From the IMG/VR virus record IMGVR_UViG_3300029885_000167: a DNA stretch of 4,652 bases, one strand, 5' to 3'. Shown piece by piece: positions 1 to 4,652 of this stretch. A program made the position numbers and the translations under genes. Below the pieces are notes generated by a model. That model did no database searches. It saw only the letters and a list, made by a program, of their open reading frames with translations, and was not told the origin of the DNA. This DNA is from a virus (taxonomy: Duplodnaviria; Heunggongvirae; Uroviricota; Caudoviricetes). Position 1 is the stretch's first letter, and each line of letters opens with the position of its first letter.

Positions 1-23
1 GAAAAACGAGTATTTTTAGTCAT
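1..23 (-). CDS. IS3-family transposase OrfA, N-terminal 7-8 codons only (3' end outside window)
   Basis: ATG at 21-23 (minus strand) preceded by AAGAGG; translation MTKNTRF(S) runs off the window edge. Matches the remembered start of IS629/IS1203 OrfA. Confidence 0.5.
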
Positions 24-77
24 CCTGTTTACCTCTTTCTCAGGAAGTTTAGTCTCCAGGATTCCCGGGGCGGTTCA
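1..77 (-). mobile_element. Terminal 77 bp of an IS3-family insertion sequence (IS629/IS1203/IS3411-like), partial; the rest lies beyond the window start
   Basis: Minus-strand sequence from position 77 downward reads TGAACCGCCCCGGGAATCCTGGAGACTAAACTTCCTGAGAAAGAGGTAAACAGG ATG ACT AAA AAT ACT CGT TTT TC. It begins with the TG(A) typical of IS3-family ends, has an AAGAGG Shine-Dalgarno 7 nt upstream of an ATG, and the ORF opens MTKNTRFS, which matches my recollection of the IS629-group OrfA N-terminus. Only about 8 codons are visible, so the family assignment is from memory of the end sequence, not a search. Confidence 0.55.
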
Positions 78-161
78 GTCTTCATCCTCCTCCCAGTCAA
101 GAGATGACAGGAAGGATTTAAACTCTCTGTTACCAGGAAATTTCAAAGTTAAATCTTTCAT
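75..161 (-). pseudogene. 28-codon ORF (MKDLTLKFPGNREFKSFLSSLDWEEDED*) translationally coupled to the tail fibre gene; probably the 5' remnant of a gene cut by the IS insertion
   Basis: Its ATG (159-161) overlaps the stf stop TGA (158-160) in an ATGA arrangement. The reading frame runs for 28 codons and its TGA stop (75-77) is exactly the first three bases of the putative IS end. I do not recognise the peptide. Confidence 0.4.
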
Positions 162-2179
162 ACTGCCTCCTTGATTTGCCTGTCATTTAATTCTTTAAAC
201 CAGACTCTGAAATTTCTGATGTGTCCAAACAAATGACGCGTTCCTGCTGCGGTCTGCCCACCAAACCGGTACGATGTTGCTGTAACTCCAAATATTTTAC
301 CATTAAGGTTTGTTGTATAATTACCATTGCATATTGCATTTACTGATAAATCAGATTTAGCTCTCACACCCACAATGAACCTTTCTCCATCTGAGGCAAT
401 TTGTGGCTGAACCATTCCTACGTTGGCGCTTATCTTTCCTGTTGCAACAAACCCCAGCGATAAATAATTATCATCAATACTGTGCCCTCCAACATCAAAT
501 ATCCTTGGCGCAACATTGGGCGGTGTACTCCAGTTCCTGCTTACTTCGCACAATACCGTAAAAGGCCGTGTTGACAGGTTATTCTGCGATGGGATAGTAA
601 CTACATCACTTGCGCGTGTTGTTGGCATTGTAGTTACAATAAATGACGATGCCGTATTGCCCAGTTCAATTTGCGGCGTCGTCATGGTTAATGTTGAGTC
701 ATCATAGAATGGCTCATTACTTATTTTATTTGTCATATAAAAAGCACAGTTAACGGTATCAATGTCCGTATTAGCTGTATAAGTGGCCTCATAGTAGGTC
801 CACTCGCCCTGTTGTTCAGCTTTGGCTGTTATAAGGGATGTATTACCGCTTACTGTTGCGATCCGGGTATCCAGATCAAGATAAGAGTCAGCAGAGAAGG
901 TATCTGTTCCACCAATAATAACTGAAACTCTTAACCTGCATCGTGCTTTAGCGCCTTTAACCCGGCACGAAAAAGTGAAACATTCACCACTTGCCAGCGG
1001 GAATCTGTCTGCTGCAACCACACCATGCACAGTATAGCCACCTGTTGTTCCCACTATACTTTCCGTGGGTGTCACCGTGGCATAATTGAACCCCTGTTTA
1101 TCAGTGCCAAATGTTTTATTCAGTGCGGAATGAACAGTCCATGAGTCTGGTTTATTTGAGTTCCTCAGATAATTTGTCCTCTGTCCTTCAATCAATAAGC
1201 CATCGCGCTCAAATCGCGGTTCGTCAACTTCAGCAAGCTTGAGTTGGCCGGACTTATTAATATACGTTGCTGTTGAAGCACGTTTAAACTTAACAATCTT
1301 GTCGCCTGGCATTGTTATTTCATCGTCACCAATAACTATCTTTTTATAAGATGGCGAAAAACCCGTAATCATATCCAGTGAATCGTTAAACGGTATCCAC
1401 ACATCAGGCAGCGGCGGCACTATATTCGCACAGGGCTCTGCAGTCACTTCCGCTGCGGCTTCTGCGCGGTCTGCCGCCTTTTCAGCTCGTGTCGCTGCCG
1501 ACAGAGCCTCATCCTTTTTCTGCCCGGCCTTTGTTGCGTCTGCTGCGGCCTCCCGCGCTTTTGTGGTGGCGACTCCGGCATTTTCAGCGGCTGACTCTGC
1601 ATTACGGCGGGAAGCCTCTTCACTGTCTGCGGAGGCTTCTTCTGACGCACGGGCATTTGTCTCTGAACGTTCTGCCGCTGTTGCTGCGTTTTGTGCGGCT
1701 GTTTTTGAAGAAGCTGCCGCTTTCGCGCTGTTACCTGCATTCGTCTCTGATGTTTTCGCCGCGTTCCTGGACGATGCCGCTGCTGTTTCTGATTTCTTTG
1801 CTGCCGCTGCGCTCTGAGAGGCGGCTTCAGCGTTGCGTGCCGCCTCTTCCACCATCTTTTCAAAACGATACAGTGCCTCCGGACAAACATCATCTTCTGT
1901 TGCAGCGCCCAGAAAATCATTCAATGTCCCCGGCTTAGAATCCTCATACACGGTGATGGTCCCGGCATGTGAAGGCGGAAAACCTTCAACCAGCAGGGCG
2001 ACGCTGTACTGGCCATACTCAACATCCATGCTGTAACGTCCGGCTTCATCCGGATTTTCTGAGGCCACCGTGTTCACCACAACTGTGGTGCTGTTACGTT
2101 TTGCTTTGAGCTGAATGGTGCAGTTCTGTATCGGTTTTCCTGCACCGTCTTTCAGCACACCTGAAATCTGTACTGCCAT
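158..2179 (-). CDS. stf: Side tail fibre protein, Stf family (673 aa): conserved N-terminal anchor domain, Ala/Ser/Thr-rich repeat shaft, divergent C-terminal putative receptor-binding domain
   Basis: Complete ORF with stop TGA at 158-160. The N-terminal ~125 aa (MAVQISGVLKDGAGKPIQNCTIQLKAKRNSTTVVVNTVASENPDEAGRYSMDVEYGQYSVALLVEGFPPSHAGTITVYEDSKPGTLNDFL...) is near-identical to the N-terminus of lambda Stf and E. coli K-12 StfR as I recall them. Start set at ATG 2177-2179, which has GGAG 5 nt upstream; the GTG at 2183-2185 used by the ORF track overlaps that Shine-Dalgarno and gives an MNM extension absent from homologues. Confidence 0.9.
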   Translation of the reverse strand: MAVQISGVLKDGAGKPIQNCTIQLKAKRNSTTVVVNTVASENPDEAGRYSMDVEYGQYSVALLVEGFPPSHAGTITVYEDSKPGTLNDFLGAATEDDVCPEALYRFEKMVEEAARNAEAASQSAAAAKKSETAAASSRNAAKTSETNAGNSAKAAASSKTAAQNAATAAERSETNARASEEASADSEEASRRNAESAAENAGVATTKAREAAADATKAGQKKDEALSAATRAEKAADRAEAAAEVTAEPCANIVPPLPDVWIPFNDSLDMITGFSPSYKKIVIGDDEITMPGDKIVKFKRASTATYINKSGQLKLAEVDEPRFERDGLLIEGQRTNYLRNSNKPDSWTVHSALNKTFGTDKQGFNYATVTPTESIVGTTGGYTVHGVVAADRFPLASGECFTFSCRVKGAKARCRLRVSVIIGGTDTFSADSYLDLDTRIATVSGNTSLITAKAEQQGEWTYYEATYTANTDIDTVNCAFYMTNKISNEPFYDDSTLTMTTPQIELGNTASSFIVTTMPTTRASDVVTIPSQNNLSTRPFTVLCEVSRNWSTPPNVAPRIFDVGGHSIDDNYLSLGFVATGKISANVGMVQPQIASDGERFIVGVRAKSDLSVNAICNGNYTTNLNGKIFGVTATSYRFGGQTAAGTRHLFGHIRNFRVWFKELNDRQIKEAV
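1439..1852 (-). repeat. Low-complexity imperfect tandem repeat region encoding the Ala/Ser/Thr/Glu-rich fibre shaft (stf residues ~110-247)
   Basis: Translation shows reiterated SETNA / AAxS / AAE-like units (…AAKKSETAAASSRNAAKTSETNAGNSAKAAASSKTAAQNAATAAERSETNARASEEASADSEEAS…). The DNA is GC-rich with repeated gctgc/gccgc units and produces long shadow ORFs on both strands (1444-1920 -, 1489-1938 +, 1563-1817 +). Confidence 0.6.
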
Positions 2180-2190: not shown

Positions 2191-2218
2191 AAATAAAAAA
2201 GGCACCATTTCTGGTGCC
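2191..2218 (-). terminator. Rho-independent terminator-like hairpin between J and stf
   Basis: Minus strand reads GGCACCA-GAAA-TGGTGCC, a perfect 7-bp GC-rich stem with a GNRA-type tetraloop, followed directly by TTTTTTATTT. It sits 19 nt after the J stop codon and ends 12 nt before the stf ATG. Confidence 0.6.
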
Positions 2219-2237
2219 CGAATTTGGGTTTTAAAAT

Positions 2238-4652
2238 TCAACTGATACTGATGCCGGCTGTTGATTTCTTCATCACGACAACAAGAAGGTCGCTGATACT
2301 GGTCGTTGGCGTCCAGTTATTTGCACCATATGAAGAAACATTGAAAGTCAGGGTGACATGGCCGTGTCCGGCAGGCATATCAATGACTGATGAAAATACC
2401 CTGCTGACATCCGTCGCGGGTTGCTGAAAGATTTCCTGTCCGTTCTTCAGCACCTGCAGCTTACAGGTTGAATACCAGTATGACTGTTGGTTGTTGCTGT
2501 TGAAGTTTTCATGCTTACCACCGCGAAACAGAACGGGGGGGACGACTATCTGACGGTCAAAAGCCTGGTCATCGTACACAGTGACCGTTATTGTACCGCT
2601 GGCATAACTGCCATTTCTCGGAAAGGCTTTTCCCACCGTTTTGACAATATCACCTTCAATCTGGTTAGCTGACAGTTTTCCCAGAATCCGACAGTTCTGG
2701 TTAATCGTGACATTATTGAGCGTCCCGGAGTTCGCATTCACGTTACCGCTGATATCCGCATTTCTCGCAGAAAGTCGACCATCAGGTGTCAGTGAAAACG
2801 TTGGGGGATTGCCACCGCTGGTAATGGTGGGAGCCGTCAGATATTTCAGGAACACTTCGTTCATGAATATCTGATCGCCCTGCCCAACAAACATCGGCTT
2901 TGTATTGCCATTCGCAGGATTAATCATCGCAATCCTGTCCGCCGCCAGCAGCACCTGACTCTGCATGCCGTCAGGGGTGTTCTCAATACCGGCACCAATA
3001 CCCGCGATATAAAGGCGTCCGTCCTGCATCTGCTGCAGCTTCACAGCCCACATGCTGTTCAGGTTATTATTTGTATCAACCTGAACCTTCTGTATCTGCT
3101 GAATTGCCGCACTCTGGTCTTCCAGTTTCTTATTGACGGTCTGCGTGATTTCATTGCTGACATCCGTAATGGACGTCCTGATTTCAGCCAGGTCAGGCGC
3201 AAGCTGACCGTTATCAATCTGCGTCCACAGCTCCTGAGCCAGATGGCTTTTCCCTATCTCGCCTTTGAAAAAATCCAGATAGCCGGATGCATCATCACTC
3301 GGCTGGCCAACAGCCTCCACAAATGCCGATTTGCCAACGGTGTTCACACTGCGGATGTAAAAATAATAATCATGGCCCGGTTTGATATTGATACTGGCAG
3401 CTATCCAGTACAGCGCCGTGCCAAGATAGCGGGCTGTGGTTTCAACCTGCCTGATATCCGCAATCCGCTTTTCCGAGAACCAGAACTCAAACTGTACCGT
3501 CGGATCATAAACGGCAAGATGGGGCGTGGCGGTTATCTGAAAATACCCCGGTGTCAGCTCAATCTGCGACGGCGCTGCCGGTGCGGCAATCCGGAACGAT
3601 ACCGATGCCGGATCGCCCTGCTGCCCCCACGCATTTACCGCCCGGACTGTCAGCCTGTAGTTCCCCAGCGCCAGTTGCCTGAAGCGGTATGTGGTTTCCG
3701 TCGTCCGGGCCATGCTGACCAGCCGCTCACTGCCGTCGTCCGCTGCCACGGTAAGGCGAAGCAGGAAGCTCACGCCCTTCACCACCTTCGGCGTGTCCCA
3801 TCGCGCCAGCACCTGATATTCCCCGCTGTCTGTGGTGACTTCGGCGGTCAGGTGCTGCACCGCTGGCGGCGTGACACCATTCACCGTGCCGCTCTGGTCG
3901 CCGTCAAAGTGCGCCCCGTTATCCACGATGGCTTCTTTTTCCGGTACATGCTGCACGGCGGTGATGGCATACGTACCGTCATCGTTCTCCCGGATACTCA
4001 CACAGCGGAACAGGCGCTGGCGCAGCGTCGGCAGCTTCAGCCCCCATACGCTGTATTCAGCAACACCGTCAGGAACACGGCTCACTTTTACCTTCACGCC
4101 GTCGGTGACGGACTGAACCTCCACGCTGACCGGATTGCCACTTCCGTCAACCAGGCTTATCAGCGTGGTACCGGAGGATGGCAGCGTGATTTCACGGTCG
4201 AGCGTCAGCGTCCGGGTCTGGCTGTTCACCGCCAGCACACGACCACCGGTGCTGATACCGGCATAGTCATCATCACAGATTTCAATAACATCGCCCGGTA
4301 CATGGCGAAGCCCTTCTGCGCCGACGCTGAAATCCACGGTCTGCGTTTCCAGCAGTTCCGTTTTAATCAGCCACAGCCCGGCGCGGTGTGCCTGCCCCCG
4401 ACTGGTACAGCCAAAGGCATCCATCTTCGTGACATTACGACCGTAACGGGCAATGGCCTGCGTATCCTCCACGAGCTCTGTCGCCGTCTCCCAGCCGTTA
4501 TCCGGGTCAATCCAGTTCACCTCAACGGCATTATGGCGGTCCTTCAGGGCGCTGAAGCTGTAGCGGAACGGCGCGCCATCATCCGGCATCACCACATTAC
4601 TGCGGTTATAGGTCCACACCTTATCTGATGGTCGGTCCTGCACGAACGTCAG
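2238..4652 (-). CDS. J: Host specificity protein J (tail tip / central tail fibre), C-terminal ~804 codons; N-terminal portion lies beyond the window end
   Basis: The frame is open to the window edge. Translation from the edge reads [50 protein letters not shown]…, near-identical to lambda gpJ from about residue 330 as I recall it; the track's initial M is really an internal GTG (Val). Stop TGA at 2238-2240. The C-terminal ~340 aa are much more diverged from lambda J than the preceding ~460 aa. Confidence 0.95.

Follow-up and report, generated by a model that had tools for sequence, protein, structure and literature searches.

The stretch of DNA analysed here, 4,652 nt in length and referred to as the window, is 100% identical over its whole length to NZ_CP043406.1 (E. 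coli NMBU-W13E19). All features relevant to the finding are located on the minus strand, according to the sequence and the list of its open reading frames, and comprise the following:

1..77, minus strand: left terminus of an IS3-family element of the IS629 type (100% identity to NZ_CP043406.1)
1..23, minus strand: start of the IS orfA (MTKNTRF..., ATG at 23..21), which leaves the window at its start (translation and Pfam HTH_Tnp_1)
53..77, minus strand: left inverted repeat (IRL) of the IS, TGAACCGCCCCGGGAATCCTGGAGA (aligned to the right end in reverse complement)
78..80, minus strand: left GAC copy of the 3-bp target-site duplication, being codon 28 (Asp) of the small gene (NMBU-W13E19 compared with the IS-free strain 4/1-1)
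78..161, minus strand: 5' stub of a phrog_1361 gene, codons 1-28 of 92 (list of open reading frames, intact relatives and phrog_1361 match)
166..172, minus strand: Shine-Dalgarno sequence AAGGAGG of the small gene (read from the sequence)
158..2179, minus strand: intact side-tail-fibre gene, 673 aa from its ATG (Pfam, NCBIfam and PHROG profiles)
2200..2219, minus strand: GC-rich, terminator-like hairpin with a T-run, in the gap separating J from the fibre gene (consensus scan)
2238..4652, minus strand: 3' portion of J, the gene for the central tail fibre and host specificity, which leaves the window at its end (list of open reading frames; PGAP gpJ in NMBU-W13E19)

The small gene starts with an ATG (161..159) overlapping the TGA stop codon of the fibre gene (160..158) in the arrangement ATGA (161..158). 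Its AAGGAGG motif is placed within the last fibre codons, 4 nt upstream of the ATG, and the corresponding place in phage 21 carries an annotated ribosome-binding site. The open reading frame runs from 161 to 78, its 28 codons read MKDLTLKFPGNREFKSFLSSLDWEEDED, and it is closed by a TGA (77..75) formed by the first three bases of the IS left inverted repeat, TGAACCGCCCCGGG.... The hairpin preceding the fibre gene consists of 8 pairs, could lower read-through into the side-fibre module and is found where a terminator is annotated in phage 21.

Nucleotide 1 of the IS corresponds to window position 77 and its nucleotide 77 to window position 1, the remainder of the 1,310-bp element being situated beyond the window start. 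In NMBU-W13E19 the element is complete, with both ends, orfA and orfB, and base-by-base comparison with the IS-free strain 4/1-1 (NZ_CP023844.1) demonstrated an inserted length of exactly 1,310 bp with the duplicated GAC on both sides. The ends are imperfect inverted repeats starting with 5'-TG and ending with CA-3'. The left repeat (window 77..53, listed above) and the right repeat, written as reverse complement TGAACCGCCCCGGGTTTCCTGGAGA, match at 23 of 25 positions and are identical in the first 14 nt. OrfA comprises 108 aa and carries the HTH_Tnp_1 domain (PF01527, E=6.4e-13); an A6 run is present at IS nucleotide 373 and OrfB, open in the -1 frame, contains a DDE-type rve domain (PF00665, E=8.3e-28) together with HTH_21. 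On the NMBU-W13E19 element, PGAP annotated an 'IS3 family transposase' with a 'programmed frameshift', and an 'AL1L pseudoknot'. All the defining features of the IS3 family for which the element was tested were found, i.e. the terminal repeats, the target duplication, the predicted orfA/orfB frameshift layout and the HTH and DDE domains. The name IS629 was adopted from PGAP, which for two of the four junction-carrying genomes gives the label 'IS3-like element IS629 family transposase', and from the left end seen in the window, which we take to be an IS629 terminus. A copy in strain HCM-26C-1, called IS1203 by PGAP, has 96.1% identity to the element. IS629 is abundant in E. coli and is frequently inserted into lambdoid prophages, whose tail regions are common landing sites.

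The IS is positioned between codons 28 and 29 of the small gene. When the IS and one copy of GAC are taken out, the result is a 92-codon gene with an identical ATGA overlap, as seen in IS-free genomes, and the remaining 64 codons are located directly 3' of the IS right end, after the duplicated GAC, where PGAP calls a 60-codon 'hypothetical protein' in NMBU-W13E19. The initial annotation, made on the window only, had described a 28-codon frame whose ATG overlaps the stf stop codon and whose TGA coincides with the left end of an IS629-like element, with OrfA running in the same direction out of the window; each of these elements was confirmed, and positions 1-77, proposed to be an IS terminus, indeed continue into a full-length element of the IS629 family by PGAP. 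The second IS end, the target duplication and the 3' remainder of the gene, all expected past the window start, were present there. The proposal that the gene had been truncated was correct as well, but the count of about 26 codons was too low, as the window retains 28 native codons, identical to the first 28 codons of the 92-codon gene of IS-free relatives. The interpretation of the locus as an insertion is supported since the relatives contain the 92-codon gene and the full IS extends beyond the window start. Viewed within the window, with its start codon, strong ribosome-binding site and stop codon, the 28-codon frame could pass for a complete small gene or a chance frame abutted by the IS, and the junction itself for an assembly artefact. 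Such an explanation is refuted by the extension of the reading frame to 92 codons in IS-free relatives, the displaced 64 codons following the right end of the IS and the occurrence of the junction in four complete genomes, each assembled independently.

Exactly 4 of 5,426 complete E. coli genomes gave a match to a 100-nt probe spanning the junction; they originate from Norway, Switzerland and Poland (two isolates). The uninterrupted arrangement is found in approximately 545 complete E. coli genomes. The Swiss isolate contains the identical IS with both junctions. Since exactly four of the 5,426 genomes share the junction, their sequences point to one insertion event that was subsequently inherited. 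In both Polish wastewater isolates the IS629 copy is itself split after IS nucleotide 795 by a group II intron encoding an ltrA reverse transcriptase/maturase, a case of nested mobile elements exemplified by B1.H1.18 (NZ_CP146564.1; locus L016, 3845-6025).

The fibre/partner locus is a repeated IS target. A second, independent insertion of an IS629/IS1203-type element in a homologous small gene was identified in HCM-26C-1 (NZ_AP038241.1; locus L008, 4540-5940), in a Rac-type prophage remnant (trkG...pinR). It is placed after codon ~19, and an adjoining 243-bp deletion removes the rest of the small gene and the first 8 nt of the gene for a 97-aa protein that follows it. In phage 3W (OM475430.1; locus L009, 1417-3833), recovered from lysogens, three 'mobile element protein' ORFs of 426, 351 and 1,614 bp in an IS66-like layout lie within the 3' end of the fibre gene, with an intact small gene just downstream. 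The IS event in the window is an ordinary prophage lesion, a piece of routine genome decay, and is already known in kind since the sequences are deposited in RefSeq with the IS annotated. The value of the locus comes from the 92-aa gene family marked by the IS, not from the IS itself.

The carrier is a full-length lambdoid prophage of ~48 kb, phage-21-like and integrated at icd, which contains int/xis, recombination genes, cI/cro/cII, O/P, Q, lysis genes and iss. Head and tail genes are also present, and after them come J, the fibre gene, the small gene split by the IS, the gene for the 97-aa membrane protein and, on the opposite strand, sitDCBA. Of these, J, the fibre gene and the sitABCD cargo have been left intact. 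Phage 21 demonstrates the order J, side tail fibre, gp23 (92 aa, 86/92 residues identical to the small protein), gp24 and sitDCBA. Induced Lambda_ev phages share this layout, and their fibre and small protein each show 100% identity to those of the locus studied here. Particle-forming phages thus carry the intact gene, as phage 21 and the induced Lambda_ev phages do.

Several observations were made on the neighbouring genes. The sitABCD iron/manganese transporter genes, together with iss in the prophage, are situated inside phage-21-like genomes recovered as particles (phage 21 and the Lambda_ev series; the loci inspected were NZ_CP043406.1, 1086000-1135900, L011; L005; and phage 21, L012), and since carrier genomes have been recovered as phage particles, sitABCD and iss are phage-borne cargo at the icd site. 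The 97-aa protein encoded after the small gene was found in temperate lambdoid phages only (72 phage records; phrog_1443, function unknown). Its gene is located outside the window, at 6831-7124 of the 4/1-1 locus (L002) and 5001-5294 of the phage 21 locus (L012), and the protein, annotated in phage 21 with a signal sequence and two transmembrane domains, is a candidate lysogenic-conversion or exclusion protein. A short remnant of the C-terminal part of tfa follows the 97-aa gene in 4/1-1 (L002, ~7144-7200) and in HCM-26C-1 (L008, 6210-6320, partial according to PGAP). Because this tfa remnant persists downstream in relatives, the gene order suggests that a module composed of the fibre 3' part, the 92-aa gene and the 97-aa gene replaced stf-3'/tfa in a lambda-like ancestor.

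The product of the fibre gene has the PF08400 domain (phage_tail_N) at residues 1-131 (E=2.8e-67), an NCBIfam GTA_spike_fiber domain (E=3.5e-18) and a match to phrog_1419 (E=1.5e-294), and its N-terminal 94 aa match chain Ta of PDB entry 9e7m, 'Tail fiber protein'. Both the presence of PF08400 and the position of the gene directly after J identify it as a lambdoid side-tail-fibre gene of the Stf type. In the protein, an N-terminal attachment domain of the lambda Stf type precedes a C-terminal module of ~530 aa that also occurs in lateral fibres of several other phage groups. It is 100% identical to the Lambda_ev203 fibre, and its C-terminal module is 38-60% identical to fibres of KarlJaspers, JenP1, IrisVonRoten and Ioannina (40% for Gp22 of IrisVonRoten). 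PGAP splits the 673-codon fibre ORF (locus L001, 4522-6543) into an N-terminal 'pseudogene' fragment and a 'phage head spike fiber domain-containing protein'; since the reading frame is continuous in the window, this split looks like an annotation artefact of domain-based naming.

The intact small gene, as seen in 4/1-1, Lambda_ev203 and phage 21, encodes WP_000654172.1, annotated as 'hypothetical protein'. The 92-aa protein matches the phrog_1361 profile (annotated 'unknown function') with E=1.6e-39, residues 1-91 being aligned to positions 1-91 of 92; this match was obtained with the intact protein, of which the window encodes residues 1-28 only. A profile search gave 354 protein clusters, nearly all of ~92 aa and none of them named, and an exhaustive HMMER profile search returned for the most part separate proteins of 85-100 aa and not a single fusion to a fibre. 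Homology-based assignment of function by Pfam, NCBIfam, PADLOC and PDB gave nothing for phrog_1361: the 92-aa protein had no family match in Pfam or NCBIfam (E<=0.1), no match in PADLOC and no sequence relative in PDB. The BFVD viral fold library returned only uncharacterised phage proteins of 81-100 aa, and a literature search on phrog_1361 and on phage 21 with sitABCD and the side tail fibre found nothing. The virion proteomes of AKFV33 and rV5 neither demonstrate nor exclude the presence of the small protein in particles, that of AKFV33 consisting of four gel bands only and rV5 carrying a different gp41 allele.

By sequence, the protein is acidic (pI 4.05) with a mass of 10.7 kDa and a predicted alpha/beta structure. 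The AlphaFold2 model, based on 57 homologues, is confident (pLDDT 91). In addition to a long beta-hairpin spanning residues 33-67, it shows a beta strand, two helices and a further short helix; this predicted fold did not match any solved chaperone. The 28-residue stub does not contain any part of the hairpin, and the displaced 64 codons hold the whole predicted hairpin core.

Several identities were tried for the protein and set aside. Tfa was ruled out, as there was no match to Caudo_TAP (PF02413) and no hit in Pfam or NCBIfam, and the reading as a defence gene found no support in PADLOC. Giant PKD-repeat proteins (P0149, P0166, P0185 and others) reached whole-sequence E values down to 4e-16 through many weak repeat matches. 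These matches, as well as that to one TPR/CHAT protein, are summed weak hits to a '..Y.V.VR..DDD' motif, the single repeats scoring 1-15 bits at E values of 2e3 or higher on the scale of the library, with an hhalign probability of 70%. Kinship to PKD repeats was rejected on these grounds and also because the AlphaFold2 model is alpha/beta and not all-beta Ig-like; a very remote relationship, as reflected in the hhalign value, is formally conceivable.

The small gene was found by tblastn in 143 phage records, and the C-terminal 254 residues of the fibre in 205. Ten genomic contexts were inspected: the lambdoid 4/1-1, Lambda_ev203 and phage 21, the plasmid-like PhiR41_1, KarlJaspers (Drexlerviridae), IrisVonRoten and AKFV33 (Tequintavirus), JenP1 (Nonagvirus), Ioannina (Dhillonvirus) and FFH2 (Vequintavirus, rV5-like). 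They span six phage groups (lambdoid, Drexlerviridae, Tequintavirus, Dhillonvirus, Nonagvirus and Vequintavirus), and in all ten the small gene starts on or immediately after the fibre stop codon. Two apparent exceptions, FFH2 ORF40 and AKFV33 orf136, turned out on checking to be divergent members of the family (hmmsearch E=2e-18 and 2e-16; hhalign probability 98-99%). The N-terminal attachment domains of the fibres differ between the groups, while the last ~530 residues are homologous. As judged from these comparisons, the small gene moves with the C-terminal module of the fibre, strictly virulent phages included, and the phrog_1361 protein is very probably linked to the fibre in some way.

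The same contexts bear on the possibility that the small gene is a moron or other accessory cargo, acting in lysogenic conversion, anti-defence or superinfection exclusion, whose loss would be harmless to the virion. The protein is small and acidic, has no similarity to known assembly proteins and is encoded next to sitABCD and the membrane protein with two transmembrane domains, all of which would suit such cargo. The occurrence of the gene in strictly virulent phages (T1-like, T5-like, rV5-like, Dhillonvirus and Nonagvirus) argues against this role, as do its start at the fibre stop codon in a late structural operon in the ten contexts and its failure to match PADLOC. The pattern expected of real cargo is shown by the temperate-only 97-aa membrane protein instead, and we consider a cargo role of the small gene improbable. 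Of the two identities offered by the initial annotation, a fibre partner or a moron, the former gains from the module linkage and the virulent phages and the latter is much less supported. The position was also said to be one for tfa or cargo genes; the interrupted gene belongs to phrog_1361 and is not tfa, and the real cargo, sitABCD, is intact.

A role in the fibre can take more than one form. The small protein could serve as a joint or adaptor by which a second, distal fibre is attached to the first, giving a branched fibre, rather than as a chaperone or tip subunit, in which case the IS would have disabled an adaptor already idle in this prophage. In KarlJaspers, IrisVonRoten, JenP1 and AKFV33 the small gene separates the fibre gene from a second one, and with a second fibre gene following in four virulent lineages the adaptor role fits equally well. 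An N-terminal motif (..T.IP.DIT.LK..) and an S74-like region at the C-terminus are common to three of these second fibres, and a published model for IrisVonRoten has Gp24 as a distal receptor-binding protein joined to Gp22, the proximal fibre (PMC11990801). However, phage 21, the Lambda_ev-type phages, PhiR41_1 and the rV5-like FFH2 have the small gene but lack a following second fibre gene, the protein encoded downstream in Ioannina does not have the shared motif, and it is the fibre module upstream, not the gene downstream, with which the small gene co-occurs. A joint is therefore an unlikely, if reasonable, role for the protein, and the comparisons lean towards an assembly factor or tip subunit instead.

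The N-terminal motif of the second fibres, in the form M.T.T.IP.DIT.LK, was observed in T1-like, T5-like and Nonagvirus phages (loci L003, 4270-4947; L004, 4289-6013; L006, 4289-5344) and, by its sequence, may be a docking peptide for the proximal fibre. Gp23 of IrisVonRoten is a member of the interrupted phrog_1361 family. The single mention of 'Gp23' in PMC11990801 is apparently a slip for Gp22 and assigns no role, and no role for the 92-aa family was found in the papers and databases searched, even where the neighbouring fibres Gp22 and Gp24 had been modelled.

The reading preferred here, to which we give a probability of about 0.88 as a whole, is that an IS629-type insertion into a phrog_1361 fibre-partner gene produced a null allele expected to impair fibre function. 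The comparisons show that a 1,310-bp IS629-type element transposed into a phage-21-like prophage at icd with duplication of GAC, and that the terminal TGA of the IS closes the 28-codon stub. Approximately 70% of the coding sequence is thereby cut off from its start, the 64 codons being left 1.3 kb downstream with no proper start of their own. According to the proposal, the phrog_1361 protein would be a dedicated partner of the lectin-like C-terminal module of the fibre, most likely an assembly factor co-translated in stoichiometric amounts or a subunit bound at the tip, and its loss would impair maturation or function of the side fibre. The IS allele should be null for the small protein whether this acts as an assembly factor or as a joint. 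Altered adsorption or host range would be the expected cost, and the viability of the phage would not be abolished because side fibres are dispensable in lambdoid phages, as established for lambda PaPa; phage 3W, with an IS66-type element in its fibre gene, is consistent with this dispensability. Polarity on the downstream gene for the 97-aa membrane protein is conjectured as a further possible effect.

A broader proposal, which we regard as evenly balanced, is that phrog_1361 represents an unrecognised class of fibre accessory proteins, the obligatory co-translated partners of a lectin-tipped module exchanged among at least six coliphage groups. The modelled fold of such a class may be unlike those of Tfa, gp38, gp57A or intramolecular chaperones. 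If the proposal is true, the IS629 allele is a natural knock-out in an otherwise complete prophage carrying sitABCD and iss. When fibre modules are swapped for host-range engineering, or annotated, the small gene should probably go with the fibre. As the carrier mobilises sitABCD and iss, effects on its infectivity bear on the spread of virulence-associated genes.

Among known systems, the element itself is the same as IS629 (isoforms IS1203 and IS3411) in all respects compared, only the insertion site being particular. The gene pair resembles Stf-Tfa, in which a small gene is likewise located directly after a lambdoid side-tail-fibre gene, translationally coupled to it, and travels with the C-terminal receptor-binding part of the fibre. 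Unlike in that pair, the 92-aa protein has no sequence similarity to Tfa, and a chaperone function is a candidate one; the protein may nevertheless play a role like that of Tfa. Lambda Tfa is also larger, having ~194 aa compared with 92 aa here.

Gp22-Gp24 of IrisVonRoten (PMC11990801) provides the second comparison: the C-terminal module of Gp22, modelled with a protruding galectin-like domain, is homologous to that of the window fibre, but the prophage does not have a second fibre gene. The LtfA/LtfB fibres of DT57C (PMC4728585), of which LtfA carries an intramolecular chaperone, represent a different fibre allele, and the papers on them were set aside as a guide. A natural lesion in a side-tail-fibre module with the phage remaining viable is likewise represented by lambda PaPa. 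Its stf frameshift was reportedly described by Hendrix and Duda in 1992. The lesion, which is also discussed in PMC11990801, is a frameshift in the fibre gene itself, whereas in the prophage studied here an IS has entered the downstream partner gene, with a putative phenotype.
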